Assembly: GCA_965203995.1 (NCBI GenBank)
Contig: OZ241962.1
Span: 1,610,311-1,674,310, forward strand
DNA: 64,000 bases
Direction: 5' to 3'
Source: Dehalococcoidia bacterium
GTDB lineage: Bacteria > Chloroflexota > Dehalococcoidia > Bin125
The notes under the pieces were generated by a model. The model saw only the letters and a list, made by a program, of their open reading frames with translations, was not told where the DNA came from and searched no databases. The translations under genes were made by a program, and so were the position numbers. Shown here piece by piece: positions 6,181 to 30,900 of the stretch (position 1 is the stretch's first letter; every line of letters begins with the position of its first letter).

Positions 6181-6280
6181 CACCCGCTCCGCTCCCCTCT
6201 CCCCGACGGAGAGGACTCGCCCCCGCGCCGTCTACTCTCTCCCCCCTTTCAAGGGGGAGATGTCACGGAGTGACAGAGGG

Positions 6281-6329
6281 GGTTCCGGTTCCCTCTCCCC
6301 GAGGGAGAGGGTTAGGGTGAGGGCCCTCC
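6281..6329. repeat. REP/MITE-like repeat, copy 2 (shorter).
   Basis: GGTTCCGGTTCCCTCTCCCCGAGGGAGAGGGTTAGGGTGAGGGCCCTCC, preceded by the separate palindrome TCTCCCCCCTTTCAAGGGGGAGA at about 6237-6260. Confidence 0.7.
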
Positions 6330-6487
6330 CCGTTAGCCCCCCAACAACAATCCCCTTCCCCCAAAACCACCCCAATCTCCCCAATCACACGGATATTGCA
6401 CGCCACATCTCAAGAGTCCACACTGACCATAACCCCATCTTCATTGACAATAAACGCAAAACATACACCTCTGAAACGGCACCGCAA

Positions 6488-9400
6488 ATGAACTCAGTCC
6501 TGCGCCGCGCCCGCCTGCCGCTCATGGCCGCCCTCCTCATCCTCGGCGTCTTCTCGATCGCCGTCGCCGCCGCCCAAGCGCCCGACTCGCCGCCCGCCGC
6601 GCCGACCATCGACTCGCTCACCCCCGGCGACAAATCGATCACCGTCGCCTGGAGCCCGCCCGTGGACGCCGACGCCGTCACCGCTTACGACCTGCGCTAC
6701 ATCCGCTCCGACGCGGGCGACAAGAGCGACGGCAACTGGACCGTCGTTGACAACGCCTGGACCACCGGCGGTGCCGCGCTCAGCTACACCATCTCCGCGC
6801 TCGACCTCGCCGTCTACTACGACGTCCAGGTCCGCGCCGGCAACGCCGCCGGCGACGGCGAGTGGTCGGTCACGGCGAAGCAGATCACCTCCTGCGGCCC
6901 GCCCGCCGAAGGCATCGCCGACCCGCTCTTCCCCTGCCAGTGGAACCTCCACAACACCGGCCAGTTCGGCGGCACCCCCGGCGAGGACATCAACGTCCTC
7001 CCCGCCTGGGAAGTCACACTCGGCGAGGGCGTCGGCATCGCCATCATCGACGACGGAATGGTCGTCGACCATGAAGACCTCGTGGACAACATCGACCTCG
7101 ACCTCAGCCACTACTACCGCGAAGACGGAACCTGGCGTGGGCGTCACGGCACCCTGGTCGCCGGAACCGCCGCCGCAAGGGACAACGACCTTGGCGTTCG
7201 GGGAGTCGCGCCGCGTGCCCAGATTTACGCGTGGGGACCTGCCCACGACCTTGAGGGCGAATTGACGACCGATGCTCTGAACCGGAGCAGCAGGTTCGCT
7301 GCGGTGATCAATATCTCGCTCTCAACGCCTCCCTTCTTTAGTCAGTTTCTTCAAGCTTCTGACGCTTGGATCAACGCGATCGAATTGGCCGTGAGCCAGG
7401 GGTACAACGGCAAAGGTTCGGTGATCGTCAAGGGCGTCGGAAACGGCGGCCCGGGGGAGCAAGTGAATGACGACGGAGAGACAAACCACTACGGGATCGT
7501 GGCGGCCTGTGCTGTCACGAATCACGGGGATCGCGCCTCGTACTCGGAGCCTGGAGCGAACCTTTGGGTTTGCGCGCCTTCAAGCGACAACTTGGAACTA
7601 GGGCGATTGGTCGGAGCTCCCAGTACCCTCCCAAGTGGCTATGACACCGGTTTCGGTGGAACCTCAGCCGCCACACCGATCGTGGCCGGCGTCGCCGCCT
7701 TAGTGCGGTCGGCGAATCCCGACCTGACTTGGCGCGATGTCAAACTCATCCTGGCCGGCAGCGCCCGTAAGAATGACCCGACCAATAGGCATTGGGTGCT
7801 CGGCGCGCTGGAGTACGGGTCAGGTACACAGCGTTACTCGTTCAATCATGAGTACGGGTTTGGTGTGGTCGACGCTGGCGCGGCCATCACGTTGGCCCAG
7901 AACTGGCAGAACTTGCCGCCCTTCCGCGAGCAGTCTGTGTCGTCTACCGAGACGCCGGTTGACATTCCCAAGGAAAGCGGCACAACCTACGGGACGCTGA
8001 GCAGCAGCATCAGCTTGGGATCATACGTTCAGTTCACCGAGTTTGTAGCGGTTTCGATCGACATCGAACACGCTGACAGCTCCAACTTGAATATCAGTCT
8101 CACGTCGCCGTCTGGCGCAGTGAGCACACTTTCCAATCCGCTGTCGAGTGCCAGACAGACGTCGGGAGGATCGCCCTGGCCGGGCGAAGTCCGCTTCGGT
8201 GCGGCCAGCCACCTGGGAGAGAATCCCGCTGGCGAATGGACGCTCACGATCATCGATGCGTACGGTCGCTATGACGGCGTCCTCAAGTCGTGGAGCATCA
8301 CGGTCTACGGACACGGGCGGCTGCCTTACATCCCCATCGCCGCCGAGCTGGCGCATGTTGACGGCGGCGAGATCATGATCGACTGGACCGCGCCCTCGCC
8401 CGACGCGGGCGAAGCGCCGATCCAGTCCTACGACCTGCGCTACCGCAAGCTCGGCGGCGACTGGACCACCGTCCAGAACGTCTGGACCTCGGCCAACGCC
8501 GGCCCGCTGCAACACCGCATGTCTGGCCTCACCGACGGCGCGCGCTACGAGTTCCAGCTCCGCGCCGCCAACAGCGCCGGCGCGGGCGATTGGTCGGCCG
8601 CTCAGACCAGCGCGTTTCCCCCGCTCTCCTTCGGCGCGCAGACCGTCGCCGACCTCGAGCACACGATCGGCGAGACCCACGATCCGCTCATCCTGCCCCA
8701 GGCCACCGGCGGCTCCGGCGACATCTCCTATCGCCTGATCACCGAGCGCGGCACCAACAACCGCCGTTACCAGGGTCTGCCCCTCTGGCTCAGTTTCGAC
8801 CCAGCCACCCGCACCCTCTCCGGCAACGCCACCGTCCTCGGCGAGTACGGCATGCGCTACGAGGCCACCGACGCCGAGAACGGTCAGACCGTTTCGCTGC
8901 GTTTCACGATTAACGTCGTCGAGCCCGCGCCGCAGCCCGACGCGGTCGCTCCCTCATTCGGCGATGCGACCATCGCCGACCAGCGCTTCACGATCAACCA
9001 GGACAACCAGGTGCAGTTCCCCGAGGCCACCGCCGCCGGCGAGATCTCGTACCGCCTGGTCACTGAGAGCGGCACCAGCGACCGCCGCTTCCGCGGACTG
9101 CCCCTCTGGCTGACCTTCGATCCGAAGACGCGCACCCTCTCCGGCGGCGCGGCCGTGCCCGGCGCCTACCGGATGCGCTACGAGGCGGTCGACGAGTCCA
9201 ACCACGCCGTCGCCGCCCTGCGCTTCACCATCCACGTCGGGTCACCGCCCGTCGAATCGGTCGACAGGTTCTTCGGCACCAGCACCGTGCCCACGCAGGA
9301 CTACACGGTGGATGAGTGGATCACCCCGATCGTGCTCCCCGAAGCCTGGGCCCGAGGCCGACGCGCTTCCTTCGAGTACGAGCTGACGGTTGAGACCAGC

Positions 9401-9577
9401 ACCGGCGAACTCGACCGCCGCGGTCTGCCGGTTGGCCTATCCTTCGCCCCCGCCACTCGTCTCCTGGCTGGCTTCCCCATCGCCGTCGGCAACTACGAAA
9501 TGAGCTACACAGCCACCGACCCCAGCACCGGAGAGTCCTCCACCCTCCACTTCACCATCCGCGTCCAGCAAGAGTAA
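6488..9577 (+). CDS. Secreted subtilisin-like serine protease (S8) with a proprotein-convertase P-domain, fibronectin-III domains and three C-terminal Ig-like repeats.
   Basis: Start chosen at the internal ATG that gives the signal peptide MNSVLRRARLPLMAALLILGVFSIAVAAAQA. Catalytic triad motifs AIIDDGM (Asp), HGTLVAG (His) and GTSAATPIVAG (Ser). P-domain-like segment ...NLNISLTSPSG...GEWTLTIIDAYG.... Repeats ISYRLVTE(S/R)GT..RR(F/Y)(R/Q)GLPLWL(T/S)FDP(K/A)TRTLSG occur three times. Confidence 0.85.
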   Translation: MNSVLRRARLPLMAALLILGVFSIAVAAAQAPDSPPAAPTIDSLTPGDKSITVAWSPPVDADAVTAYDLRYIRSDAGDKSDGNWTVVDNAWTTGGAALSYTISALDLAVYYDVQVRAGNAAGDGEWSVTAKQITSCGPPAEGIADPLFPCQWNLHNTGQFGGTPGEDINVLPAWEVTLGEGVGIAIIDDGMVVDHEDLVDNIDLDLSHYYREDGTWRGRHGTLVAGTAAARDNDLGVRGVAPRAQIYAWGPAHDLEGELTTDALNRSSRFAAVINISLSTPPFFSQFLQASDAWINAIELAVSQGYNGKGSVIVKGVGNGGPGEQVNDDGETNHYGIVAACAVTNHGDRASYSEPGANLWVCAPSSDNLELGRLVGAPSTLPSGYDTGFGGTSAATPIVAGVAALVRSANPDLTWRDVKLILAGSARKNDPTNRHWVLGALEYGSGTQRYSFNHEYGFGVVDAGAAITLAQNWQNLPPFREQSVSSTETPVDIPKESGTTYGTLSSSISLGSYVQFTEFVAVSIDIEHADSSNLNISLTSPSGAVSTLSNPLSSARQTSGGSPWPGEVRFGAASHLGENPAGEWTLTIIDAYGRYDGVLKSWSITVYGHGRLPYIPIAAELAHVDGGEIMIDWTAPSPDAGEAPIQSYDLRYRKLGGDWTTVQNVWTSANAGPLQHRMSGLTDGARYEFQLRAANSAGAGDWSAAQTSAFPPLSFGAQTVADLEHTIGETHDPLILPQATGGSGDISYRLITERGTNNRRYQGLPLWLSFDPATRTLSGNATVLGEYGMRYEATDAENGQTVSLRFTINVVEPAPQPDAVAPSFGDATIADQRFTINQDNQVQFPEATAAGEISYRLVTESGTSDRRFRGLPLWLTFDPKTRTLSGGAAVPGAYRMRYEAVDESNHAVAALRFTIHVGSPPVESVDRFFGTSTVPTQDYTVDEWITPIVLPEAWARGRRASFEYELTVETSTGELDRRGLPVGLSFAPATRLLAGFPIAVGNYEMSYTATDPSTGESSTLHFTIRVQQE

Positions 9578-13626: not shown

Positions 13627-15306
13627 TCATCGCAGGCGGGCGCTGGCAACGATCGTACCGCGGTTGGTTGGCGGCATGGAGTGAGCGACGCGCGGATATG
13701 GAGTTGGCGGTGTGGTGCCGTTTGGTAGGCCAGAGTTGGCGAAATATCGAACAGAAGTCTCTTCCTTCGTGACTCCGTCCGAGGGCATCGGGACTGTGTA
13801 GGTCAGCGTCGCCTGATCGCCGACGACTTCGATGTCCTGGACGAAGTTGCGAATCAGCGCCTTGCGCTCGGGGATCGTTCCCTGCTGGAGGAACTCGCGG
13901 AAGTCCGCCACGTAGGCCTTGATCTTCTCGGTGCTCGGCAATTCCACACGGCGATTTTCGAGTTGGCGGCTCAGGTCTTCCTGCGCGGCCATCAGTTGTT
14001 CCTCGCGGTGCCGCATCGAGTAGATGCGGGGCGACAGGACTTCCATCGTCAGGTCGCTGGTCTCCAGCGCCTCGTAGAGCCGCGACAGCCGATTGCGCAC
14101 GTCCTCTAGCTCACCTTCGACCGCTTTGAGCTTGCCGCCCAGCTCACCGGCCGCTTCGTCGACTTCTTCGGCGACCAGCGTCACCAGTTCCGTGATCGTC
14201 TCGTCGGTGAGAATGCGCTCCTTGATCTTGTCAACCACGAAGCCCTCGACCCTGGGTGCGTTCAGGTAGCGCGACTCGCATGCGCCGGCGCCCTCGCGCA
14301 TCAGCTTGCTGCAGACGTAGTAGGCGAACTTACCGCGCCTCGCTCCCTGAATGCTGAAGGGACTGCCGCAGACCCCGCAGCGCAGTAGTCCGCTCAGGAT
14401 GAACTTGCTGCCCACTCGCGCCGGCGGTCGCATCGCGGGAGCGCGCTCACGCATCGCCTGGCCAACGGCGTCGAACAGCTCGCGCGAGACGATGGCGGAC
14501 CAGGCATCCTCTACCCGGACCGGATCGGACGCCTTCTTGCCCTTGTTGGTCTTGCCCCAGACCGCCGTCCCCGTGTACGCCTCGTTGACCAGCAGCTTGT
14601 GGAGGCTGGCTCGCTGCCAGCGTCGTCCCCTATTGGTGATCCCCCTCTCGTTCAGGTCGCGGCAGATGTCCTTCAGGCCGTGGCCGCGCAGCGCCTTGTC
14701 AAAGATCTCTCTGACCACTGGAGCCGCGGCTTCGTCAATCTCCAACTTGGGTCGTTTCTTGGCGCCGTCCTGCACCTTCACGCGCCGGTACCCAAACGGT
14801 GCGATGGGCGCCATGAAGAAGCCCCGAGACGCGGCCTCGCGCATGCCGCGACGGACTTCCTGCGCCAGGTTTTCGGAATAGAACTCGTCCACGCTCTCGA
14901 TGATCGCCTCCATCAGGCGGCCGGTCGGAGAGTCGTCGGCGTGTTCGGTGATGGACGTGACCCGGATGCCGCGCCTGCGCAGCATCGACTTGAACGCGAC
15001 GGCGTGTTCGCGCTTGCGAGTGAAGCGCGAGAATTTCCAGACCAGGATCTCTTCGAAGGGCGCGTTCGTCTCGGAGGCTTCGTCGAGCATCTTGCTGAAT
15101 TGGGGTCGGTCAGCGACGCGCCCCGACTCCGCTTCGTCGATGTACTCGCGGGCGACGACATAGTTGTGTCGCTCTGCGAAGTCGCGAAGAGCGCGAAGTT
15201 GGGCGGCGACTGAGAGGTCGACATCCTGTCGCTCGCTGGACACTCTCGCGTAGAGCGCGACCGGGGTTCGTTGGGTGCTGGTTTCCATTGTGTGTTCCTT
15301 CCGCAT
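13627..15306 (-). CDS. Large serine recombinase/integrase (resolvase catalytic domain, recombinase domain, zinc ribbon, coiled coil).
   Basis: N-terminus VALYARVSSERQDVDLSVAAQLRALRDFAE... has the catalytic Ser-Arg core. Zinc-ribbon Cys pattern CGVCGSPF...YYVC. A long C-terminal coiled-coil region. 559 aa. Confidence 0.9.
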   Translation of the reverse strand: MRKEHTMETSTQRTPVALYARVSSERQDVDLSVAAQLRALRDFAERHNYVVAREYIDEAESGRVADRPQFSKMLDEASETNAPFEEILVWKFSRFTRKREHAVAFKSMLRRRGIRVTSITEHADDSPTGRLMEAIIESVDEFYSENLAQEVRRGMREAASRGFFMAPIAPFGYRRVKVQDGAKKRPKLEIDEAAAPVVREIFDKALRGHGLKDICRDLNERGITNRGRRWQRASLHKLLVNEAYTGTAVWGKTNKGKKASDPVRVEDAWSAIVSRELFDAVGQAMRERAPAMRPPARVGSKFILSGLLRCGVCGSPFSIQGARRGKFAYYVCSKLMREGAGACESRYLNAPRVEGFVVDKIKERILTDETITELVTLVAEEVDEAAGELGGKLKAVEGELEDVRNRLSRLYEALETSDLTMEVLSPRIYSMRHREEQLMAAQEDLSRQLENRRVELPSTEKIKAYVADFREFLQQGTIPERKALIRNFVQDIEVVGDQATLTYTVPMPSDGVTKEETSVRYFANSGLPNGTTPPTPYPRVAHSMPPTNRGTIVASARLR

Positions 15307-15507: not shown

Positions 15508-15849
15508 ATGGTCACAGAGGCGGAACGAACGACACAGGCCAGTGAGTACCAGCTGCGGCAAATGTCGGATCGGATCGTGGAGCACTTCCAACCCGAGCAG
15601 GTATTCCTGCTTGGCGGTCGCGTCACAGGACAGGGCCAGTGGGTCGAAGTGGAGTTGTTGGTCGTACTGCCAGGTGAGTGGGACTACCGGGAGAAGTCGA
15701 CCGAGATCCAGGAGTCGCTGGTGGGCTCAGGGATAGGCAAGTTCGTCCACCTGAGCACGCCGGCGCTGCTCAAGGAGCGAAGTGAGGTAGGCGGCTCTAT
15801 GGAGCACAGCGCTCTCTGCGAAGGTCGTGTTCTGTATGAGCGCCAGTGA
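15508..15849 (+). CDS. Minimal nucleotidyltransferase (MNT)-like protein, putative antitoxin of a HEPN/MNT pair.
   Basis: Motif resembling the nucleotidyltransferase motif G[SG]x9-13Dh[DE]h (Glu replaces the usual Asp): QVFLLGGRVTGQGQWVEVELLVVLPGE. It overlaps the downstream HEPN gene by about 20 nt. Confidence 0.55.
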   Translation: MVTEAERTTQASEYQLRQMSDRIVEHFQPEQVFLLGGRVTGQGQWVEVELLVVLPGEWDYREKSTEIQESLVGSGIGKFVHLSTPALLKERSEVGGSMEHSALCEGRVLYERQ

Positions 15850-16261
15850 CGAAACGCGCATCGCGAGTCGCTGGCTGAGCTACGCGGAAGAGGATTTGCA
15901 GGTTGCAGACTGGCTCCTCGCTGAACCCGAACTCGCACCGCGCTACACATGCTGGCATTCGCAACAAGCGGCCGAGAAGGCGCTCAAAGCTCTCCTGCTA
16001 TTGGAGACCGGTGATTACAAGCCGACCCATGACTTGCACGAACTGGCAGATCTCCTACCGAAGCCGTTGGCAGAACGGATTCCTCGCCCACGCCTCTCGC
16101 TGTTGACGCAGCTATACATCGAGTCCCGTTATCCGGGGAGATATGCCGAGCCAACGTCAACAGAGGCGTTGACAGCCACGATGACCGCTCGCGCTGTATT
16201 CGATGCCGTCGACGGAGAGTTCCAGCGGCTCGGGGTCGCGTCCGAGAGGTCGGACGAATAG
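15827..16261 (+). CDS. HEPN domain protein, putative toxin of a HEPN/MNT pair.
   Basis: Classic HEPN helix CWHSQQAAEKALKALLLLETG...THDLHELADLL and ...ESRYPGRY... with the R-x4-6-H-like motif region. Confidence 0.7.
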   Translation: MFCMSASDETRIASRWLSYAEEDLQVADWLLAEPELAPRYTCWHSQQAAEKALKALLLLETGDYKPTHDLHELADLLPKPLAERIPRPRLSLLTQLYIESRYPGRYAEPTSTEALTATMTARAVFDAVDGEFQRLGVASERSDE

Positions 16262-16367: not shown

Positions 16368-18428
16368 ATGAACGCCCGGACCCATGCTGAGTTGGCGAAT
16401 TTTATCTGGAGCATCTGCAACCTGCTGCGCGGGCCGTACAAGCGGAACGAGTATCGCAAGGTCATCCTGCCACTGACCGTGCTGCGGCGATTTGACTGCG
16501 TGCTGGCGGGCACGAAGGCGGACGTGCTCGCGGCTGCTGAGCAGACCAAGGGCCAGGGTGAGACCATGCGGGACATCGCTCTGAGAGGTGTGTCGGGCTA
16601 CGAGTTCTATAACAGCTCTCGGCTCGATTTCCAGCGGCTCCTGGACGACCCGAACCACATTGCCCAGAACCTGAACGCCTACATCGCAGAGTTTTCGCAG
16701 AACGTGCGCGAGATTATGGAGCGCTTCGCCTTCGGCCAGCAGATCGCCAGGATGGACGAAAGGAACCTGCTCTTCCAGGTTGTACAGTCGTTCGCGAACG
16801 TGGACCTCTCGCCTGGGCGCGTCGACAACGTCCAGATGGGATACGCGTTCGAGGAGCTGATCCGTATCGGAGCGGAGCAGGCGAACGAGGAGGCCGGCGA
16901 GCACTTCACTCCGCGCGAAGTGATTCGTCTGATGGTGAGCTTGCTTCTATCGGATGAACCCGACCTGGGCCGCAGCCATGTGGTCAAGAAGATCTACGAC
17001 CCGGCCTGTGGGACGGGGGGAATGCTCTCGGTGGCTGAAGACTTCTTGAGGGAGCACAACGCCGAATCGCTGCCGGTGCTCTTCGGGCAGGACATCAACG
17101 ACGAAGCGTGGGCGGTCTGTAGGTCGGACAGGCTGCTTAAGGGGGATCGTGCCAACAACATCGTGCTCGGCGATAGCTTCACCAGTGACGGCTTCCGAAG
17201 GCAGGAGGGTGGGAAGTCCTGGACGTTCAACTACATGCTCGCCAATCCGCCATTTGGGGTGGAGTGGAAGCAGCAGCGACGGACAATCGAGCAAGAACGA
17301 AACACGATGGGATTCGAGGGTCGGTTCGGTGCCGGTCTGCCCCGGATCAATGACGGCTCGCTCCTGTTTCTGCAACACATGCTCTCGAAGATGGAGCCTG
17401 TGACGGACTCCGGCGAGGGCGGCAGCCGGATCGCGATCGTGTTCAACGGCTCGCCGCTGTTCACCGGCGACGCCGGCAGCGGCGAGAGCAACATCCGGCG
17501 CTGGATCATCGAGAACGATTGGCTTGAGACGATTGTCGCGCTGCCCGACCAGCTCTTCTACAACACCGGCATCTCGACCTACATCTGGATTCTGACCAAC
17601 CGCAAGGAGGAGCGCCGGCAGGGCAAGGTGCAACTTATCGATGGGCGTCAGTTCTCCGTCAAGATGGGCAAGAGCCTGGGCAACAAGCGCAACGAGCTGT
17701 CGGACGAGCAGATCGCGGACCTTACCCGTATCCATGGCAACTTCGAGGACGGCGAGACACGCGACCTGCCCTACGAGGACCCGGTGACGCACGACATGCG
17801 CTTGCGGCCGCGCGTGGTGAGCAAGGTGTTCGAGAACCAGGACTTCGGCTACCGCAAGATCACGGTTGAGCGCCCGCTGCGGTTGAACTTCGCCGCGACT
17901 CCGGAACGGGTCGAACGGCTCGATGGCGTGAAAGCGTTCCGCAAGCTCGCCGAAGGCAGACAGCAAGCGATACACAAACTGCTTGCGGCCCACGCCGAAG
18001 CGACCGGTGGCGGACTCTGCCGGGATCGGGACCTCTTTGAGCAACTGCTGGACGACACTGCTGCGGATTGCGAGATACGGATATCGGCGCCGGAGCGAAA
18101 GGCGGTACTTGGCGCGCTCGGGGAACGCGATACCGACGCCGAAATCTGTCTGGACCGGCACGGCGATCCAGAGCCGGACCCCGAGCTGCGCGACACCGAG
18201 AACGTGCCGCTCAGCGAGGAATTCGCCGATTACATGAAGCGCGAAGTCCTGCCGCACCTGCCCGACGCCTGGGTCGACACGAGCAAGACGAAGATCGGCT
18301 ACGAGATTCCGCTCAATCGCCACTTCTACGTGTACGAGCCGCCGCGCCCATTGGAGGAGATCGAGTCTGACATTCAGTCGTTGGAGCGGGAGATTGTCGA
18401 GTTGCTGTCCCAAGTGGGGAGGAACTGA
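16368..18428 (+). CDS. hsdM: Type I restriction-modification system methyltransferase subunit HsdM.
   Basis: HsdM N-terminal domain (ANFIWSICNLLRG...YRKVILPLTVLRRFDCVL). Motif I DPACGTGGMLS. Motif IV LANPPFG. Confidence 0.9.
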   Translation: MNARTHAELANFIWSICNLLRGPYKRNEYRKVILPLTVLRRFDCVLAGTKADVLAAAEQTKGQGETMRDIALRGVSGYEFYNSSRLDFQRLLDDPNHIAQNLNAYIAEFSQNVREIMERFAFGQQIARMDERNLLFQVVQSFANVDLSPGRVDNVQMGYAFEELIRIGAEQANEEAGEHFTPREVIRLMVSLLLSDEPDLGRSHVVKKIYDPACGTGGMLSVAEDFLREHNAESLPVLFGQDINDEAWAVCRSDRLLKGDRANNIVLGDSFTSDGFRRQEGGKSWTFNYMLANPPFGVEWKQQRRTIEQERNTMGFEGRFGAGLPRINDGSLLFLQHMLSKMEPVTDSGEGGSRIAIVFNGSPLFTGDAGSGESNIRRWIIENDWLETIVALPDQLFYNTGISTYIWILTNRKEERRQGKVQLIDGRQFSVKMGKSLGNKRNELSDEQIADLTRIHGNFEDGETRDLPYEDPVTHDMRLRPRVVSKVFENQDFGYRKITVERPLRLNFAATPERVERLDGVKAFRKLAEGRQQAIHKLLAAHAEATGGGLCRDRDLFEQLLDDTAADCEIRISAPERKAVLGALGERDTDAEICLDRHGDPEPDPELRDTENVPLSEEFADYMKREVLPHLPDAWVDTSKTKIGYEIPLNRHFYVYEPPRPLEEIESDIQSLEREIVELLSQVGRN

Positions 18429-18485: not shown

Positions 18486-18932
18486 GTGACCCTGATGCCC
18501 GATTCTCAAGCGTTGGACGAGCGATCTCCAGCCGTCCGCACTCACCTAGAGATGATGCAGGGCGTCATCGAGCGAATGGCGAGCAATAGCCGCTCGTGCA
18601 AGGTCTGGTGCGTGACGCTCGTTGCCGCGGTCTTGGTGCTCGTGGCGCGAACGGGCGAGTCGCAGCACGCTCTCATCGCGCTCGTGCCGACCGCGCTGTT
18701 TCTGGTGCTCGATGCCTATTATCTGGCGTTGGAGCGGGCATTCATTTCTTCCTACGACAGGTTCGTGTCCCGGCTGCACGGGCGAGCCCTAGCTTCGGAG
18801 GAGCTGTTCGCCATTTCGCCATCAGGCTCCATTCCGCGGACGGCTCTCCGCGCCGTGTTGTCCTTTTCCATATGGCCGTTCTACGCTCTGATTCTTGCCA
18901 CGACATTGCTCGCGTGGCTATTGATCCTCTAG
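18486..18932 (+). CDS. Small membrane protein with three predicted TM helices, 148 aa, of unknown function, encoded inside the hsdM-hsdS operon.
   Basis: Hydrophobic helices VWCVTLVAAVLVLVA, ALIALVPTALFLVLDAYYLAL and LRAVLSFSIWPFYALILATTLLAWLLIL. The gap to hsdM is 58 nt and the gap to the downstream TIR gene is 14 nt. Confidence 0.5.
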   Translation: MTLMPDSQALDERSPAVRTHLEMMQGVIERMASNSRSCKVWCVTLVAAVLVLVARTGESQHALIALVPTALFLVLDAYYLALERAFISSYDRFVSRLHGRALASEELFAISPSGSIPRTALRAVLSFSIWPFYALILATTLLAWLLIL

Positions 18933-18946
18933 GACCGGAGGGAACG

Positions 18947-19516
18947 ATGGCCAACAGGGCACCTCGGCATCAAGTGTTCGTCAGCTTTCATGAAGACGAT
19001 ATGAAGTACAAGAATCTCTTCGTCGCCAGAATGCGGGGCCGAATCCGCGACCGGTCCGTGGACACAGGCAACATCGATGACACGAACCTGAAGACCGACA
19101 CCATCCGGAACAAGATTCGCGACAGGTACATCCGTGACGCAACAGTGACTGTGGTCTTGATTGGCCCTTGCACGTGGCAGAGAAAGCACGTGGACTGGGA
19201 GATCGGTGGAAGCCTCCGAAGCACCAAGCGCAACCGAAGATGCGGGCTCGTAGGGATTTTGTTGCCCAATCACCCTGACTTTGGGAAGCGGCGACGGAAC
19301 CTGCAGCGTGTTCCGCCGCGGCTAGCGGACAACGTTGGAGGCCTCGACCCATACGCGCGGATCTACGATTGGCCTGAGCCTTGGGCACCTGCGCGGGTTG
19401 CCGACTGGATCCACAGCGCGTTCGTCCGGCGAGACGGGGCTCCACCAGACCAGAGCAGGCAGTCGTTTGGTCGCAACTGGACTCGGCGCCGTTGCTCTCA
19501 AGGCTGGGCCCAGTAG
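18947..19516 (+). CDS. ThsB-like TIR-domain protein (Thoeris ThsB / DUF1863 TIR-like family).
   Basis: Start at the internal ATG that has a GGAGGG ribosome-binding site. From memory it aligns block by block with Bacillus ThsB: QVFVSFHEDD versus RVFFSFHYQD; ATVTVVLIGPCTWQRKHVDWEIGGSL versus TSVTCVLIGSQTFNRRWVRYEIMKSI; LVGILLPNH versus IIGIHINAF; ARIYDWPEPW...VADWIHSAF versus YRVYDWVADDGYNKFSSWVNSL. Its stop codon abuts the hsdS start codon. Confidence 0.75.
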   Translation: MANRAPRHQVFVSFHEDDMKYKNLFVARMRGRIRDRSVDTGNIDDTNLKTDTIRNKIRDRYIRDATVTVVLIGPCTWQRKHVDWEIGGSLRSTKRNRRCGLVGILLPNHPDFGKRRRNLQRVPPRLADNVGGLDPYARIYDWPEPWAPARVADWIHSAFVRRDGAPPDQSRQSFGRNWTRRRCSQGWAQ

Positions 19517-20908
19517 ATGACCCTTAGACCAGCGAGCAAACTCCGCGTGTACGCGCGCGTCCGAGACCCGGGCTTCGAGTGGCTTGGCGAAGTGCCGGAA
19601 CACTGGCAAACGACGCGACTGGCCTACTCCGCCCTCAGATCGGATGTGAAGCTGGAACCTGACCAAGCGGAGGGTTTGCCTTACGTTGGGCTGGAGCATG
19701 TCGCGTCCTGGACCGGGCGACTGCTGCCGCTCGATGACCAAATGACCCCCGAAGGCGCGGCCAATGCCTTTGAGAGCGGCGATGTGCTGTTTGGGAAGCT
19801 GCGACCTTATCTGGCAAAGGCGGTGTGTGCCGATTTCGATGGCGTCTGCTCCGCAGAGTTCCTGGTGCTGAAATCGAGAGACTATGAGCGTCGCTACTTG
19901 CTGTACTTGTTGCTGACGGACGGCTTCATTTCCCACGTCGATTCGTCCACGTACGGGGCCAAGATGCCGAGGGCGAGCTGGGACTTCATAGGGGACTCAC
20001 TGCTGCCCGTTCCACCCCTCGATGAACAGCGCGATATTGCCGACTTCCTCGATCAGGAGACGGAGCGGATTGACTCGCTGATTGCGAAGAAGCGATTGCT
20101 GATTGAGCGGCTGCAGGAGTATCGGACGGCACTGATCACGCGCACGGTGACGCGCGGTCTCCCAGCCGAGGCCGCCCGCGCCGCCGGCCTCGACCCATCG
20201 CTCCGCCTCAAGCCCTCTGGCGTGGAGTGGCTGGGAGATGTCCCTGAGCATTGGCAAGTGGCTCGTCTGAAGTGGTCGCGGGCAGCAGCGGTCAATGGAG
20301 TGTGGGGAGAAGAGCCCGACGGAGAGAACGACATCCCGTGCGTGCGCGTCGCGGACTTTGATCGCCAGTCGTTTCGTGTGCGATTCGCAGAACCGACTAT
20401 GCGTTCTGTCGTCGCTGCCAAACGCGACGGTCGTGAACTTCGGCCAGGCGACTTGCTGCTCGAAAAGTCAGGGGGAGGCGAACACCAGCTTGTGGGTTGC
20501 GTCGTCCTCTTTGACCATGAGCAAACGGCGGTCTGTTCCAACTTCATCTCACGAGTGTCGCCTGCGGAGGGCGCGTATCCTGGCTATTGGATGTACGCGC
20601 ACGCTGCACTCTATGCAGGCCGCCTCAACTACCCAGCGGTGAAGCAAACAACTGGCATTCAGAATCTCGACGCCGATGCCTATTTCGACACTCTCTTCGT
20701 CTTTCCGCCTCACTTGGAGCAAAAGCAAATCGCCGAGTTCCTCGATGGCGAGACTTCAAGAATTGATGGCCTCCTGAATCGAGTGGAGGTTGCGATCGAG
20801 CGGCTCCACGAGTATCGCACCGCCCTCATCACTGCAGCGGTGACGGGCAAGATCGACGTGCGGGATGACGCTAACTCTGGCCGAGGCTCCGTCGAATCAG
20901 GGCCCTGA
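19517..20908 (+). CDS. hsdS: Type I restriction-modification system specificity subunit HsdS with two target-recognition domains.
   Basis: Conserved HsdS central and distal repeats: GDVLFGKLRPYLAK, LQEYRTALITRTVTRGL and LHEYRTALITAAVTGKIDVRD. Two variable target-recognition-domain-like regions. Confidence 0.85.
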   Translation: MTLRPASKLRVYARVRDPGFEWLGEVPEHWQTTRLAYSALRSDVKLEPDQAEGLPYVGLEHVASWTGRLLPLDDQMTPEGAANAFESGDVLFGKLRPYLAKAVCADFDGVCSAEFLVLKSRDYERRYLLYLLLTDGFISHVDSSTYGAKMPRASWDFIGDSLLPVPPLDEQRDIADFLDQETERIDSLIAKKRLLIERLQEYRTALITRTVTRGLPAEAARAAGLDPSLRLKPSGVEWLGDVPEHWQVARLKWSRAAAVNGVWGEEPDGENDIPCVRVADFDRQSFRVRFAEPTMRSVVAAKRDGRELRPGDLLLEKSGGGEHQLVGCVVLFDHEQTAVCSNFISRVSPAEGAYPGYWMYAHAALYAGRLNYPAVKQTTGIQNLDADAYFDTLFVFPPHLEQKQIAEFLDGETSRIDGLLNRVEVAIERLHEYRTALITAAVTGKIDVRDDANSGRGSVESGP

Positions 20909-21254
20909 CCTCTACGGGCGTGTCGAGATTTCGTAGTGCGCCCCGTTGGACTCGAGCGAGGAGCGAGGGCGAGAGAGGCTGATGAGTCTCGTACCTGCCT
21001 TCGGCGACTCGGCTCTCGATCAGCTCCAGGTCAGGCAGCGCTGCGCCCAGATAGAAGATGCAGGAGTTATGTGTCGGATACGGATGCTCGCCGGGAGCCA
21101 CAACGACGCAGTCGGCGTTGCAGGTTGGTCTCCTGGCCGGGTCGTGGGTCGTGAAGTTGGCTGCGGCCACACTGCCATCATCCGCAGCATCGGACAGGAT
21201 GATCCAGAGGTGGTTCTTCGCGTCGAGACCGAAGAACGTGTCTCCGACGTTCAC
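20871..21254 (-). CDS. Hypothetical 127-aa protein translationally coupled downstream of a Panacea (DUF4065) antitoxin gene. Candidate toxin partner.
   Basis: ATGA overlap (4 nt) with the upstream DUF4065 gene. No recognisable domain (MNVGDTFFGLDAKNHLWIILSDAADDGS...). Its 3' end overlaps the 3' end of hsdS in a convergent arrangement. Confidence 0.35.
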   Translation of the reverse strand: MNVGDTFFGLDAKNHLWIILSDAADDGSVAAANFTTHDPARRPTCNADCVVVAPGEHPYPTHNSCIFYLGAALPDLELIESRVAEGRYETHQPLSPSLLARVQRGALRNLDTPVEVRALIRRSLGQS

Positions 21255-21805
21255 CCGGCGCGTACCAGCTGGGTCCGCATCTGATAGACGGCTTCGGCAT
21301 TGTCAGTGGCCAACCCGATCGCGTAGTCGCTGTAGCCGGCGTAGCGCAGGATGTCGACCGGATCGATCGGAATCGAGGAATCGCCAGGATCCTGCCACTC
21401 GGGCAGGGCCTGTGTCTGGCAAACCACCTGCGAGGAGCGCAGCTTACCGAAGGTCTCGTGGATGTCGTTGAGCATGGCCACATCGAATTCAGAGAGCTGA
21501 TTCGACTCAGCGCCGCCGCACAGCGAGACCTCAAAGTATTGCCGCTTGACGTAGCGATGCCAGATCGAGTCCTCGGCTGGATGCTCCTCCAGTATGAGTT
21601 CGAGCACCTGGCAGGGCGTCGGCCCGTGCTTCATCGAGGCGTAGTGGTCTCTGGTGATTGGAGCCTCCGTCTCGATCAGGGCGGCGCGGTCGGCGAGGTA
21701 GAGCAACTTGACCAACTTGAGGTAGTCCATCGAGCCGCCGGCGCGCTCCAGAAGGATCGAGGCGGCCTGGGCCGCACGGTGCTCGTCGAACACGAATCTC
21801 ATCAT
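21251..21805 (-). CDS. Panacea-domain (DUF4065, SocA/GepA-like) antitoxin-type protein.
   Basis: MMRFVFDEHRAAQAASILLERAGGSMDYLKLVKLLYLADRAALIETEAPITRDHYASMKHGP matches the DUF4065 core (..Kl.KLlYlaD...l...g.pit...y.a...GPv). Start chosen at the internal ATG pair. The longer upstream extension in the ORF track looks non-coding. Confidence 0.75.
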   Translation of the reverse strand: MMRFVFDEHRAAQAASILLERAGGSMDYLKLVKLLYLADRAALIETEAPITRDHYASMKHGPTPCQVLELILEEHPAEDSIWHRYVKRQYFEVSLCGGAESNQLSEFDVAMLNDIHETFGKLRSSQVVCQTQALPEWQDPGDSSIPIDPVDILRYAGYSDYAIGLATDNAEAVYQMRTQLVRAG

Positions 21806-21923
21806 GGCGGTCACTCTATCCCTTTGGCGGCAATTGTTGCGTGAGGGGATCGGGTCGTCAAGACGCCGGGCCAGGCGGCGGTATCGTGGGCAAAGATCGA
21901 TAGTGCAAGCGGAGACGGTCTCG

Positions 21924-24900
21924 ATGACCACCCAGACCAAAGAGCAGGCGTTCGAGGCGACGGTCGAGTCGATCCTGCTTGATGTCGGCTGGGTCAAGGG
22001 CGTTCGTGAGGATTGGGATGTCGACCAGGCGCTGTTCGCCGAGCCCGCAATCGCGTTCATGCGGGACACGCAGCCCGAACAGTGGAACAAGATGCGGGAG
22101 CTGCACCAGGATGCGCTCGAATCGCGAATTGTCGAGGTGCTGTTGAAGGAGCTCGACAACAAAGGCTCACTGCACGTCCTGCGTCATGGGTTCAAGTTCT
22201 TCGGCCAGACCTTTCGCCTGGCCTACTTCAAGCCGGCGCACGGTCTCAACGAGGAGGCGCAAAGGCGGTTCGAGCGCAACGAGCTTTCGGTGACCCGCCA
22301 GGCGCGCTGTCATCCCAACAAGGGTCACGAGATCGACCTGCTGTTCGCGCTCAACGGCATCCCGGTTGCGACTTGCGAGCTCAAGAATCCGATGACCGGC
22401 CAGACCTGGAAGAGCGCCACCCGGCAGTACCAGCAGGATCGCGATCCCAACGCGCCGCTGTTCCGATTCCAGAAGCGAGCCCTCGTCCACTTCGCCGCCG
22501 ACACCGACGAAGTCCACATGACCACGAAGCTGCAGGGTGGCGAGACTCGCTTTCTCCCGTTCAATCGAGGCAGCAATCCTGGCGGAATCGAATGCGGCGC
22601 CGGTAATCCGCCCGATCCGTCCGGCTATCGGACGAGCTACTTCTGGAAAGAGGTGCTGGAACGCGAGCGCTTCCTCGACATTATCGGGTCATACATCTTC
22701 ACCGAGACGCGCGAAGAGAAGATCGAGGACGCGAGCGGTCCACGCACAGTGAAACGCGAGTCTGTGATCTTCCCGCGCTACCACCAACTCGACTCGGTCA
22801 ATCGGCTGGTCAAGACGGCGAAGGCCGAAGGCGCCGGCCACAACTACCTGATCCAGCATTCGGCCGGCAGCGGCAAGACGAACAGCATCTCCTGGCTCTC
22901 GCACCGGCTCGCCAGCCTGCACACCGACGACGACGAGAAGGTCTTTGATTGCGTGATCGTGATCACCGATCGCCGCGTGCTCGACCGTCAGCTTCAAGAC
23001 GCCATCTACCAGATCGAGCACGCGCAAGGAGTCGTCAAGCCGATCGACCAGGACTCGCGCCAGCTCGCCACAGCGCTAATCGACGGGACCAAGATCGGCA
23101 TCACCACGCTGCAGAAATTTCCCTTCGTCATGAGGGGCCTGCTCGCGGCCGCGGGCGCCGAATCGCTCGATGACCCGTCCGAAGTGGAGAAACAACAGCA
23201 AGCCGAGTGGCGGAAGGCGATCGCCAAGCGGCGGTACGCGGTCATCGTCGACGAGGCGCACTCCAGCCAGTCGGGCGAATCCGCGCGGGAGATGAAGGGA
23301 GTTCTCGGATCGCGAGCGCAGGAGGCGCTGGAGACCGGCGAAGTTGGTGAGGACATGCTCAATGCAGTGGTAGAGGCGCGCGGCCCGCAGCCGAACCTCT
23401 CGTTCTTCGCCTTCACCGCGACGCCCAAAGGGAAGACGCTGGAGCTCTTCGGCCGTAAGCCAGCCCCGGACCTGAATCCGCTCCCGTTCCACGTCTACAG
23501 CATGCGACAGGCGATTGAGGAAGGCTTCATCCTCGACGTGCTCCAGCGCTACATCGACTACGACGCCTACTTCAAGCTAGTGAAGGAAGCTGAAGACGAC
23601 CCGGATCTGCCCAAGCGTCGAACGTCGACGGCGATCGCCAAGTTTGCGCACCTGCACGAGCACAACATCGCGCAGAAGACGGAAGTGATCGTCGAGCATT
23701 TCCGCAACAACGTGCGGTTCCTAATGGACGGCCGAGCCAAGGCGATGGTGGTCACGTCATCGCGCCTCCACGCGGTGCGATACATGAAGGCCTTCAAGAA
23801 GTACATCGCCGAACAGGGATACCAGGACGTGCGCCCGCTAGTGGCCTTCAGCGGGACGGTCCACGATCCGGACACGGGCGAGGATTTCACTGAGCCAGGT
23901 ATGAACCTTGATGTCGTGACCGGCAAACCGATCGGCGAGTCGGCGCTGCCTGCGCGGTTCGCCTCGTCCGACTACAACGTCTTGCTCGTGGCCGAGAAGT
24001 ACCAGACCGGCTTCGACCAGCCGCTGCTCCAGGCGATGTACGTCGACAAGCGCCTCGACGGCGTTCAGGCAGTTCAGACGCTCTCACGCCTGAATCGCAC
24101 CGCGTTGGGCAAGCAGCCGCCGTTCGTCCTCGACTTCGTCAACGACCCCGAGGACATTCGGAAGGCGTTCAAGCCGTACTACGACCAAACCCAGTTGGAC
24201 GAGGAATCTGATCCATACCGCCTGGAGGAGCTGAAACACGAGCTCGATCAGACACAGGTCTACCACTGGAGCGAGGTCGAGGCGTTCGCGCAGGCCTTCT
24301 TCAGCCCGGGAACCGGCGGGGTGAAGAGCATTCACGCCCAACTGACGAGCCTGCTACAGCCGACTGTCGAGCGATTCCGCGAGTTGGACGACGAGGGACA
24401 GAAAGAGTTTCGCGACCGCTTGCAGGCATTCGTGAATCTGTACTCCTTCCTCAGCCAGATCATCCCCTACGGCGACCACGACTACGAGCGACTCTCCGCG
24501 TTCGGTCGCGCGCTGCTTCCGCATGTGCGAGCGGCCAGGGAGGACGTGATCGACATCGGCAACGATGTGGAGCTTGAGTTCTACCGACTCACACAGCAGT
24601 CTGTTGGAGCCATCCAGGTAGCAGAAGGCGCGCCCGAGTATGTCGCAAGCCCGACTGAGGTGGGTACCGCTGATCCCGAGGAGGAGCGGGCGCCGCTCTC
24701 GGAGATTATCGAGAATCTTAATGATCGGTTCGGGACGGAGTTCAAGGAATCGGACCGGCTGTTTTTCGAGCAGATCAAGGAGAGCGCCGTCGAGAACGAG
24801 ATGATTCGCCAGACAGCTCTGGCGAATTCGCTCGACAACTTCAAACTCGTCATCAGCCCTCGGATCCAGCACCTCATGTACGAGCGGATGAGCGAAAACG

Positions 24901-25040
24901 ACGCGCTGGTATCGAGAGTCATGAATGAGCCAGAGTTCCAGCAGATCGTGCTCGCGGGCTTGGTCCGCGAAATCCACGAAGCGGCTGGTGCCCTGGGAAG
25001 AGAAGAACCCCAGCAACTTGTCGGGGCGTCGGACGCCTAG
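21924..25040 (+). CDS. hsdR: Type I restriction enzyme endonuclease subunit HsdR.
   Basis: Walker A IQHSAGSGKTNS, DEAH box VIVDEAHSSQSGE, an SF2 helicase C-domain, and an N-terminal nuclease region. Start set at the ATG that has an upstream GGAGACGG ribosome-binding site (MTTQTKEQAFEATVESILLD...). Confidence 0.9.
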   Translation: MTTQTKEQAFEATVESILLDVGWVKGVREDWDVDQALFAEPAIAFMRDTQPEQWNKMRELHQDALESRIVEVLLKELDNKGSLHVLRHGFKFFGQTFRLAYFKPAHGLNEEAQRRFERNELSVTRQARCHPNKGHEIDLLFALNGIPVATCELKNPMTGQTWKSATRQYQQDRDPNAPLFRFQKRALVHFAADTDEVHMTTKLQGGETRFLPFNRGSNPGGIECGAGNPPDPSGYRTSYFWKEVLERERFLDIIGSYIFTETREEKIEDASGPRTVKRESVIFPRYHQLDSVNRLVKTAKAEGAGHNYLIQHSAGSGKTNSISWLSHRLASLHTDDDEKVFDCVIVITDRRVLDRQLQDAIYQIEHAQGVVKPIDQDSRQLATALIDGTKIGITTLQKFPFVMRGLLAAAGAESLDDPSEVEKQQQAEWRKAIAKRRYAVIVDEAHSSQSGESAREMKGVLGSRAQEALETGEVGEDMLNAVVEARGPQPNLSFFAFTATPKGKTLELFGRKPAPDLNPLPFHVYSMRQAIEEGFILDVLQRYIDYDAYFKLVKEAEDDPDLPKRRTSTAIAKFAHLHEHNIAQKTEVIVEHFRNNVRFLMDGRAKAMVVTSSRLHAVRYMKAFKKYIAEQGYQDVRPLVAFSGTVHDPDTGEDFTEPGMNLDVVTGKPIGESALPARFASSDYNVLLVAEKYQTGFDQPLLQAMYVDKRLDGVQAVQTLSRLNRTALGKQPPFVLDFVNDPEDIRKAFKPYYDQTQLDEESDPYRLEELKHELDQTQVYHWSEVEAFAQAFFSPGTGGVKSIHAQLTSLLQPTVERFRELDDEGQKEFRDRLQAFVNLYSFLSQIIPYGDHDYERLSAFGRALLPHVRAAREDVIDIGNDVELEFYRLTQQSVGAIQVAEGAPEYVASPTEVGTADPEEERAPLSEIIENLNDRFGTEFKESDRLFFEQIKESAVENEMIRQTALANSLDNFKLVISPRIQHLMYERMSENDALVSRVMNEPEFQQIVLAGLVREIHEAAGALGREEPQQLVGASDA

Positions 25041-27973: not shown

Positions 27974-30900
27974 TTGTTGGTCCACCGATGCCCTTACGCT
28001 GCGGGAGTGACCTCGGTGCAGTACCTGAGCCGCGCTGCCTTAGTTCGACGAGCCGCCGAGCGATGGCGGAAGGATCTTGTCGACACCTCGGGACGGAATC
28101 GACTTCGCCGGTTCCGCGACCTCCGGACGGGAACGCTTGACCTCACGCCAGGACGTGCCGAATGCCTGGACCGCCGGGCGTTGGATCGGATGCTGGATGG
28201 CAAGGCTGTTACGCTTCACGATCTGTTTCCTGAGCCTCGGAACGATCCGGAAGACGCCTCAGCCTTTCTCGATGCCCGGCGTCGCCTTTCTGCCATCCAC
28301 AAGCGGGCGCTGACTGACGCGGAAGAGAAGGGGATCGACACCTGTTTCGCTGCGATTGGTCTGGCGACATGGAAGGTGGACCAGGGAGCGCCTCCGATTG
28401 CTCCAGTGCTGCTTCTCCCACTAGAGGTCGAAGCAAGCGGAGCGGCGGCACGTGATTTCATTATCCGGGTCTCGGGCGATGCCCATTTGAACCCCGTGCT
28501 CGGCCACATCCTGCGGACAGAACACGACATCCAGACCGAGGCTCTAGAGGCAGAGGTGGCGGAGGATCCTCCGGCGGATGTCAATCACTTCCAATCCTGG
28601 CTGGATGGGCTGTCGGAGACCTGGCACGATCTGCCTGAGTTGGCGATCGAACTTCGGGTGGTGGTCTCGACCTTCTCCTACTCGACCATGCCGTTGGTCG
28701 TTGACCTGGAGCAGAACGAAGGGCACTTCGCCGAGCACGACATCGTCGCTGCCGTGGCCGGCGACATAGAGGCACGAGAGCGCCTCGCTGTGCAGATCTG
28801 TGATCCTGCGCCCAATCAGCCCGACCTCGATCCACCGGCCGACGAGTTCCTGGTGCTCGATGCGGACTCCAGTCAGCATCGAGCGATCAACCGCGTGATC
28901 GGCGGGGAATCGCTTGTCATTCAAGGCCCACCTGGAACGGGAAAGTCGCAGACGATCGCCAACCTCGTGGCGGCCCTGATCGCCCGCGGCAAGCGAGTGC
29001 TCTTCGTCGCCGAGAAGCGAGCGGCAATCGAGGCAGTGACCAAGAGGCTGGCGCAGGTCGGACTCGATGATCTGGTGATGGACATGCACGGCGGCGTCAC
29101 CTCACGTCGGGAGTTCGCCCGCACGTTGGCAGCATCACTCGAGCTTGTCTCGCGCATTCCGGAGCCTGACTTCTCGGCGACGCACCGTCGCCTCAAGCTA
29201 CGGCGTGATGCCCTGATCCAGAACAATGCGGCGCTGCACGAGATTAGGGATCCATGGAAGCTCAGCGTGGACGAGATGCGCCAACGCGTCTTGGCTATCC
29301 CGGAGGAAGCGAGAACCGATCTCCGTCTGACGCGTCGCGCGGCGGAAGGTCTGGACGTCCAGAAGTTCGAGGAACTCGCTGGCGAGGTTGAGGAGTGGAT
29401 CGACCTTGGGGGACACGTGCTGCCGGACCGCCATCCAGAATGGTCGGAAAGCAAGATTGCCACAACGGAGGACGTGTTGAACGCTTCAGACTTGCTGAGC
29501 GATCTTCATGCGGATCGGCTCCCGGAGGCTCGGGAGGACCTCGCTGCAGCGCTCAACCACGTGGGCCTGGAGTTTCCAGCCAAAATCGGTGAATGGACCC
29601 CGGTCGTCGATTTCCTTCTGTCGATCGAATCGACGCTGGCTTCTTGGCATCCCGAGGTCTACCGGCTCGACCTCGAGGCGACGCAAACAGCCCTCGCGCC
29701 AATCGAGCGCGGCACGCTGCCGCGTTTCTTCGCTCGGCTGTTCAAGAGCGACTATCGCTCAGCCATGCGGGCCGTTCGAGGACTCCTAAAGGACTCCGCC
29801 AGCGTCCGGGACGCTGATGTCCTGGCACTCATCAATGAGGCGATTGAGCAGCGCGCTGAGTGGAGCCAACGTCAGAAGGACGATGGTGATCCACGCGCTC
29901 CTTCCGAACTGAGTCAAGTCAAGAGCGCGGTTGAAACGCTCATGGATGGAGTCCGGGACCTCGGGCAAGTCTTGGCGAGGGACGACCTCGACCAGCTCGG
30001 CCATCACGAGCTCGCCGAGTTGCTGGACGGGCTTGTGACCACGCTCAGCGTCGCGGCGAACCTCCCTCGAATACGCGAGCTGGAAGCAACGTTCGAGAGG
30101 CAGGGCGTCGAGCGGGTGACCAGGCAGGTAGGTCGAGAGATACCGGCCACCGCGGCCGGCGCGGCCGTGGAACACGCATGGCTGTGCAAGGTGTTGGAAG
30201 ATCTGGACATTCGGGACAAGACCCTGAGGTCGTTCGATGGTGCGCGACATTCGAGGCAGCGCGACGAATTCGTCGATACCGACCGAAAGCATCTCGCCTC
30301 AACGCCAATCAGGGTTAAGCGCTTGGTCGCCGAGTCGATCATCGAGACCATGGAACAGCACCCGAAGGAACGTGATCTGGTGCGCAAAGAAGCGGCCAAG
30401 AAGAGCCGTCATCTCAGCGTGCGCCAACTCTACGCCCAAGCTCCGCACATGTTGTCCGCCCTGCGACCGTGTTGGACGATGTCGCCCATCCTCGTGGCCG
30501 AGATGATTCCGCATGAACGCAAGCTGTTCGACGTCGCGATCTTCGACGAGGCATCTCAGATCCCGCCTGCAGAGGCGATCGGGTGCTTGGCTCGGGCGCC
30601 GCAGGTCGTGGTTGCCGGCGACAGTCATCAGCTGCCACCGACCACGTTCTTTGGCCGCCACTCCGAGGATGAAGAGGAAGAGGAGGGCGACCTCGCGCTC
30701 ACTCGCAATATCGAATCGCTGCTGGATGTCGCTGGCGCGCTGCTGCGCGACCAGATGCTGTTGTGGCACTACCGCAGTCGTGATGACCGCCTGATCGCGT
30801 TTTCCAACCGCCACATCTACGGCGGCGCGTTGACGGCGTTTCCCGGCGCGCTGGTGGACAGCCCGATCAGTTTTCAGCTGATTCCGTTCCGGCCCATCAC

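Follow-up and report, generated by a model that had tools for sequence, protein, structure and literature searches.

The window, as the stretch of DNA analyzed here is called, comprises 64,000 nucleotides (nt) of a Dehalococcoidia bacterium (assembly GCA_965203995.1, contig OZ241962.1, positions 1,610,311 to 1,674,310). Two small adjoining genes were found in it between hsdM and hsdS of a Type I restriction–modification (R-M) operon, namely a thsF-like gene encoding a membrane protein and a thsB-like gene encoding a TIR protein. The pair is very probably a type V Thoeris abortive-infection module (thsF–thsB, the PADLOC candidate PDC-M50), carried as cargo in the hsdM–hsdS slot. In the PADLOC search, the membrane protein matched PDC-M50A with an E-value of 3.6e-29, and the best match of the TIR protein was PDC-M50B (3.6e-10), followed by several ThsB models (9e-10 for ThsB). 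The two PDC-M50 models fell on adjoining genes in the A>>B order of the cassette. PDC-M50 corresponds to cassette CAS_00164 (FAM_00415>>FAM_00416) of Payne et al. (bioRxiv 10.1101/2024.01.29.577857), a computational candidate with 57 instances, from a study in which genes located inside BREX, DISARM, and Type I R-M loci yielded 145 phage defence candidates. In the accessible parts of that preprint, PDC-M50 is purely computational and is given no mechanism. A literature search for the term PDC-M50 returned a supplementary table and no main text.

The Thoeris systems have recently been extended by Yirmiya et al. (bioRxiv 10.64898/2025.12.03.692087, December 2025), who described 29 putative types and validated seven new ones. 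According to this preprint, type V Thoeris consists of ThsB and ThsF, an effector of three membrane-spanning helices annotated as DUF2270, and the type V system from Bacillus thuringiensis DAR 81934 protected B. subtilis from phages (bioRxiv 10.64898/2025.12.03.692087). The ThsB of this strain, as given in Table S1 of the preprint, was 100% identical to protein P0391 on contig L086. The next gene on that contig (L086:3773-4198) encodes a protein of 141 amino acids (aa) with three hydrophobic segments, and the upstream gene encodes a 271-aa protein with no hydrophobic segments. The window membrane protein shared 35% identity with the 141-aa ThsF over 140 aa (BLASTP, E 2e-19). Furthermore, the profile–profile comparison of the window and Bacillus ThsF subfamilies (hhalign) gave a probability of 99.4% and an E-value of 6e-22, and the B. 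thuringiensis ThsF matched the same PADLOC model as the window protein, PDC-M50A, with an E-value of 1.8e-48. Judged by these alignments, the membrane protein is homologous over its full length to the phage-validated type V effector. Because of the ThsF homology and the common PADLOC model, PDC-M50A was equated with the ThsF family and the window pair was assigned to type V. As far as found in the accessible text of the two preprints, this equivalence is stated in neither of them. A sequence-only reading of the window had presented the pair as an undescribed two-gene layout. This has to be withdrawn, since the layout is already the PADLOC candidate PDC-M50 and its effector family is the ThsF of type V Thoeris. 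The first plasmid matches of the B. thuringiensis ThsB (H1 and H2) were also tried as type V loci and rejected, as they lie in SIR2 and Macro contexts, i.e., those of type I and type II.

The open reading frame (ORF) of the membrane protein can start at GTG 18486, giving 148 aa, or at ATG 18495, giving 145 aa. The ATG is the likelier start, because nearly all homologs are 145–146 aa long and begin at the equivalent ATG. The hydropathy profile showed three hydrophobic segments, centred at about residues 41–46, 68–70, and 126–136. The first description of this protein as almost nothing except three transmembrane (TM) helices was thus correct as to the three segments, but it missed a conserved amphipathic N-terminal helix (about 25 aa) and a linker of some 45 aa on the cytoplasmic side. 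In the AlphaFold2 (AF2) monomer model, with a predicted local distance difference test (pLDDT) value of 80, helices covered residues 12–53, 56–95, 114–121, and 127–144. Helix 12–53 is the long N-terminal helix continuing into TM1, helix 56–95 is TM2 with an extension, and helix 127–144 is TM3. Five residues (R27, N31, K36, T41, and D73 in window numbering) were invariant in the window and Bacillus subfamilies, and L18, Q22, M28, S32, W38, P65, L77, E80, S123, and Y130 were near-invariant in both. The family is very large: a word-indexed search gave about 1950 clusters at 90% identity, and an exhaustive search with E up to 1e-3 gave 4170 at 50% identity.

The window membrane protein had no significant match to any Pfam or NCBIfam family, and a profile search of the PDB sequences found no relative. 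The B. thuringiensis ThsF (L086:3773-4195) gave a sub-threshold match to PF24838, the '8xMP, octameric membrane protein family' (E 0.012), which was full-length (ThsF residues 10–134 against profile positions 6–130 of 136). No PF24838 match was obtained in the window family, and no paper on 8xMP was found in the literature. A SLATT effector, as in type VII Thoeris, was considered and rejected at the sequence level, since no SLATT match appeared in Pfam at E up to 10 or in NCBIfam. A remote relationship to SLATT may still lie beyond the reach of sequence comparison.

The TIR protein is a ThsB-family TIR with the catalytic glutamate. It matched the Pfam family PF08937 (ThsB_TIR) over residues 11–108, with an E-value of 3.7e-16 and 59.8 bits (cut-off 21.2). 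The AF2 model of the TIR protein was of moderate quality (pLDDT 68), and when it was searched against the PDB by Foldseek, the solved ThsB structures 8wcf, 9b7d, and 8v6t were matched with TM-scores of 0.48–0.57. EcThsB, BcThsB, and EcThsB2 were among the top matches, together with related DNPH1 and plant TIR folds. These Pfam, PADLOC, and Foldseek results agree with the initial recognition of the protein as ThsB-like. The pairwise similarity to B. cereus ThsB (BcThsB; 6lhy, 9b7d) was weak (E 0.09, residues 9–97), and the alignment paired VTVVLIGPCTWQRKHVDWEI of the window TIR with VTCVLIGSQTFNRRWVRYEI of B. cereus ThsB. The catalytic residue of BcThsB is Glu85. Glu85 of the window protein, which lies within the motif HVDWEIG, falls on this residue (numbering from the ThsB sequence in Table S1, bioRxiv 10.64898/2025.12.03.692087). 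Moreover, Glu85 and the surrounding RKHxDWEI were invariant across 25 TIR homologs.

The closest validated relative of the window TIR was found in another Thoeris type. The window protein shared 40% identity (E 1e-33) with ThsB from a validated type VI system (Ga0209396_100023224), and both proteins contain the motifs RKHVDWEI, GLVGILLPNHP, PPRLADN, and YDWP. The last three, toward the C-terminus, have no counterpart in B. cereus ThsB. A block-by-block match to Bacillus ThsB had been claimed for the window protein, and it stood for the FVSFH and VTVVLIG...DWEI blocks, albeit at an E-value of 0.09; the LVGILLPNH, PPRLADN, and YDWP blocks belong instead to the type VI ThsB clade.

Several points weigh against the assignment of the pair to type V. 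L086:3773-4198 was identified as the tested effector from the consecutive numbering of the IMG genes and from the three-TM description. The validation of type V comprises two Bacillus systems only and comes from a preprint; E. coli was not protected by a type V system from Vibrio, and one validated variant was not triggered by 3'cADPR, an isomer of cyclic ADP-ribose (cADPR) (bioRxiv 10.64898/2025.12.03.692087). In addition, no validated type V TIR belongs to the clade of the window TIR, whose nearest relative among validated systems is of type VI. Finally, the DUF2270 (PF10028) label of the preprint was reproduced neither for the window family (E 3.3 for the window protein; best of 19 family members, 0.13) nor for the B. 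thuringiensis ThsF (no match at E up to 10 in the same Pfam copy). The label was therefore unusable as a criterion, and membership was rested on ThsF homology instead. A putative '3TM' effector class of the preprint, listed there with no effector sequences, was also considered as a match for the window pair; its listed TIRs, of the YNLFISHSW type, are unlike the window TIR, and some of those clusters are also placed under type V.

The conservation of the pair was studied in the gene neighbourhoods of related loci. A scan of one genome per species yielded 307 loci with ThsF relatives, and the best 80 of the 307 were examined, with neighbouring genes called by tblastn using window and locus-derived queries. 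These 80 loci came mostly from metagenome-assembled genomes (MAGs) of Dehalococcoidia and other Chloroflexota, with a few from Bryobacterales, Opitutales, Binatia, Omnitrophota, Aminicenantes, and Fraserbacteria. A TIR gene was present within 200 bp of the ThsF gene and on the same strand in 72 of the 80, so that the membrane ORF, whose conservation and synteny had been put up for a gene-neighbourhood check, is indeed conserved and syntenic. The TIR gene was downstream of ThsF in 63 loci, upstream in 43, and on both sides in 34. Outside R-M loci, ThsF homologs adjoined TIR genes on a Vibrio chagasii plasmid (two pairs) and on plasmids from Terribacillus, Clostridium botulinum, and Klebsiella. 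ThsF homologs were likewise found on plasmids of E. coli, lactobacilli, Priestia, and haloarchaea, those of E. coli, lactobacilli, and haloarchaea being counted without neighbouring genes. Conservation of the ThsF–TIR pairing extends over many phyla and to plasmids.

The loci also differed in copy number and partners, and duplication of ThsF was frequent. Two tandem ThsF–TIR pairs lie between hsdM and hsdS in L038 (4824-8010), and the Vibrio chagasii plasmid (L082 3986-8197) carries two paralogs of ThsF, with a separate TIR for each. A second ThsF copy is located downstream of hsdR in L008, L017, and L018. In the Aminicenantes locus L075 (1146-3197), the order is TIR (164 aa), ThsF, and a SIR2_2 protein (PF13289, 1.9e-13), the only SIR2_2 partner among the 80 loci, so that a SIR2 protein may here be joined to a ThsF module. 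Moreover, on a Rathayibacter plasmid (NZ_CP047175.1, 122615-122968; H26), the match of the window ThsF falls under the annotation 'HIT domain-containing protein', which may reflect either a fusion or overlapping annotations; a HIT hydrolase is the effector of type XI Thoeris.

The ThsF family had TIR partners from at least five families, each confirmed with Pfam: the type seen in the window (189 aa), types of 158, 128, and 164 aa, and a DUF1883–TIR_2 fusion. Of these, the types of 164 and 128 aa are similar to TIR clusters that Table S1 of the preprint gives under 'DUF2270 - Type V'. One constant small effector with exchangeable, often multiple TIRs is a hallmark of Thoeris. The same data bear on a reversal of the roles, in which the TIR would be an NAD+-depleting NADase effector and the membrane protein a sensor, anchor, or regulator, for instance of phage-induced membrane perturbation. 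Many bacterial TIRs are NADase effectors, a caveat raised for the unverified types (bioRxiv 10.64898/2025.12.03.692087), and at L075 the membrane protein is partnered by another NADase fold, the SIR2_2 protein. Such a reversal is nevertheless unlikely, because the membrane protein is constant while at least five TIR families are swapped around it, often two per locus, which is the pattern of sensors, and soluble enzymatic effectors are likewise found as partners of the same TIR clusters. Furthermore, the B. thuringiensis type V TIR by itself produced 3'cADPR upon infection, and added 3'cADPR was toxic only when the system was present (bioRxiv 10.64898/2025.12.03.692087). A TIR NADase acting alone, one of the two mechanisms first offered for the window, is disfavoured by the same partnering, often on both sides, of the membrane gene with exchangeable TIRs. 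The best evidence points to the other, in which a minimal pore-like membrane protein reads a ThsB signal, in line with the assignment to type V.

The mechanism proposed for the window pair follows the published type V work. ThsB would sense infection and cyclize NAD+ into a cADPR isomer, which would then bind positively charged pockets between the protomers of a ring-shaped ThsF homo-oligomer. According to an AlphaFold3 prediction, ThsF is a channel-like homo-heptamer whose inter-protomer pockets are positively charged (bioRxiv 10.64898/2025.12.03.692087). Candidate pocket residues are R27 and K36, located where the N-terminal helix and TM1 end on the cytoplasmic side, and their invariance would be compatible with the predicted basic pockets of the oligomer. 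Once bound, ThsF may breach or depolarize the membrane, whereby phage replication would stop and the cell would be lost by abortive infection. The signal itself may differ from that of B. thuringiensis. Because the window ThsB belongs to the TIR clade of type VI, a 2'cADPR system, it is conceivable, though somewhat doubtful, that the ThsF clade of the window responds to 2'cADPR or to another isomer rather than to 3'cADPR.

It was also considered that the pair might be an inactive remnant, or a non-defence membrane/TIR pair hitch-hiking in the operon. This clade is known from sequence alone, and the upstream TIR of many relatives is absent in the window. Against this, both ORFs are intact, the invariant residues of the ThsF family are all kept, and the TIR retains the catalytic Glu together with 45 invariant columns. 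Moreover, the window layout (ThsF followed by the 189-aa TIR, with no upstream TIR) was the commonest among the relatives, at 28 of the 80 loci, and defence and toxin–antitoxin (TA) genes lie all around the pair. Decay or mere hitch-hiking is thus highly improbable.

The location of the type V module was examined on the DNA (Table 1). Both genes lie in the same orientation between hsdM and hsdS. The hsdM stop is 57 nt upstream of GTG 18486 and 66 nt upstream of ATG 18495, and the TIR stop codon TAG (19514-19516) runs into the hsdS ATG without a gap (TAGATG, 0 nt). With the 14-nt and 0-nt gaps and the Pfam-confirmed hsdM and hsdS, the pair is embedded in the Type I R-M operon, as had been read from the sequence at the outset. 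No convincing promoter or terminator was found between hsdM and hsdS in a scan with the sigma-70 consensus, which is weak evidence for this phylum. The result fits co-transcription of the pair with the hsd genes and does not prove it. The true start of hsdR is probably near 21924 (MTTQTKEQ...).

Table 1. Coordinates of the thsF–thsB pair and of the hsd genes in the window.
Feature	Position	Strand	Basis
hsdM, methylase subunit of the Type I R-M system, upstream edge of the slot	16368-18428	+	Pfam N6_Mtase 9.7e-56, HsdM_N 2.7e-26
thsF-like gene, 145-aa three-TM membrane effector (PADLOC PDC-M50A)	18495-18932	+	PADLOC, BLASTP, hhalign
Spacer of 14 nt with a GGAGG ribosome-binding site for the TIR gene	18933-18946	+	Sequence reading
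thsB-like gene, 189-aa TIR, putative sensor and signal synthase (PADLOC PDC-M50B)	18947-19516	+	Pfam, PADLOC, Foldseek
hsdS, specificity subunit	19517-20908	+	Pfam Methylase_S 4.2e-08; junction read in the sequence
hsdR, restriction subunit of the same Type I system	21804-25040	+	Pfam HSDR_N, SWI2_SNF2, ResIII, T1R_D3-like

The position of the pair raises the question of whether it is a PrrC-like guard, functionally linked to the Type I R-M complex and firing once a phage anti-restriction protein disables HsdM, HsdS, or HsdR. Exactly the hsdM–hsdS slot was occupied in 37 of the 80 loci, the thsB stop touches the hsdS start, and PrrC is located almost exclusively in slots of this kind (Payne et al., bioRxiv 10.1101/2024.01.29.577857). 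However, the other 43 loci and the plasmid copies are outside hsd operons, and the validated type V systems act as two genes in a heterologous host (bioRxiv 10.64898/2025.12.03.692087). In relatives, moreover, unrelated cargo such as AbiEi/AbiEii, BrnT, IS200, and Hypoth_Ymh was often found in the same slot, and a Panacea cassette separates hsdS from hsdR in the window, which together indicate a generic cargo site. Coupling to the R-M complex is therefore very unlikely, and it is just as hard to credit in its specific form, in which ThsB of the hsd-embedded lineage would be silenced by the HsdM/HsdS complex or would sense its inactivation. The embedding of the type V module in the hsd operon most likely reflects shared transcription and joint mobility rather than mechanistic dependence on the R-M enzyme. 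In one HsdM subclade, AbiEi/AbiEii-like genes and a TIR–ThsF–TIR triplet both occur in the hsdM–hsdS slot (L008 4949-6477; similarly L006, L010, L013, L017, L018, L020, L027, and L059), which is a stacking of two unrelated abortive-infection cassettes in one R-M operon.

The surroundings of the operon were also inspected. The GC content was 60–62% across about 18 kb (13.6–32 kb) including the hsd operon and 69% in the right flank, and a large serine recombinase gene (CcrB/XisF-like, 2e-47; 13627-15306, minus strand) lies at the left edge of the low-GC stretch. This stretch is probably a typical defence island on an integrated mobile element. Directly 5' of hsdM, an MNT-like ORF with no family match (15508-15849, plus strand) overlaps a HEPN ORF (15827-16261; PF05168, 9.4e-22), and the two are probably a HEPN/MNT TA pair. 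The minus-strand cassette between hsdS and hsdR consists of a SocA/Panacea-domain antitoxin (21251-21844; PF13274, 8.7e-16), overlapped by a 127-aa ORF (20871-21254) without a Pfam, NCBIfam, or PADLOC match, and this ORF is a candidate for a novel toxin in a TA pair of the PanA type. A 1360-aa protein encoded a few kb away from the hsd operon (27974-32056, plus strand) matched PDC-S37 (5e-273) and Hhe (9e-138) in PADLOC, and this PDC-S37/Hhe-like helicase is another single-gene defence candidate. To the left of the island, a 903-aa protein with weak MTase_II, type IIG, and PglX matches (851-3562, plus strand) and a 1105-aa subtilase-like protein (6260-9577, plus strand) may be further defence-related genes.

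On the type V assignment, what looked like an orphan ThsB beside a bare membrane protein would be explained as type V Thoeris, and no new mechanism or class would be needed. The PADLOC candidate PDC-M50 and an experimentally validated ThsF effector would also be joined as one family. The range of type V would be widened to Dehalococcoidia MAGs, very often in the hsdM–hsdS slot and frequently as a TIR–ThsF–TIR triplet with exchangeable TIRs. Furthermore, the combination of a type VI-clade TIR with a type V effector makes it testable whether signal specificity follows the TIR clade or the effector family.

Compared with other systems, the window pair resembled the PrrC and RloC anticodon nucleases as abortive-infection cargo among Type I R-M genes, whereas its proteins and mechanism are unrelated to theirs and no sign of regulation by the R-M complex was seen in the window. 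With type I and type II Thoeris, it has in common a TIR sensor and a separate effector, the type II effector being also membrane-anchored and lethal. Unlike these types, the pair and the flanking ORFs scanned contained no SIR2 or SLOG of type I and no Macro match of type II, for which the 145-aa membrane protein is too short; the early remark that a canonical ThsA or Macro partner is lacking was accordingly borne out. Type VI Thoeris, composed of ThsB and ThsG/DUF6650 and using 2'cADPR, was alike in the TIR only, since no PF20355 (DUF6650) match was obtained at E up to 10 in 19 members of the membrane protein family. From the type V system of B. thuringiensis, the window pair differed in gene order (effector–TIR against TIR–effector) and in the clade of its TIR, which is closest to type VI ThsB, so that the signal may differ from 3'cADPR. 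The embedding in an hsd operon is a further difference, the word 'restriction' having 0 occurrences in the main text of the preprint. The host differs as well, being, to judge by the nearest homologs, probably a member of the little-studied phylum Chloroflexota. In its architecture, the pair agreed with type V Thoeris, in that a ThsB TIR and a three-TM membrane effector of about 140 aa form a two-gene operon, and its relatives carry TIR clusters that the preprint places under type V. It also agreed with PDC-M50, as far as the accessible description of that cassette goes, since both window proteins matched the A and B models in order and the cassette is likewise of embedded origin.

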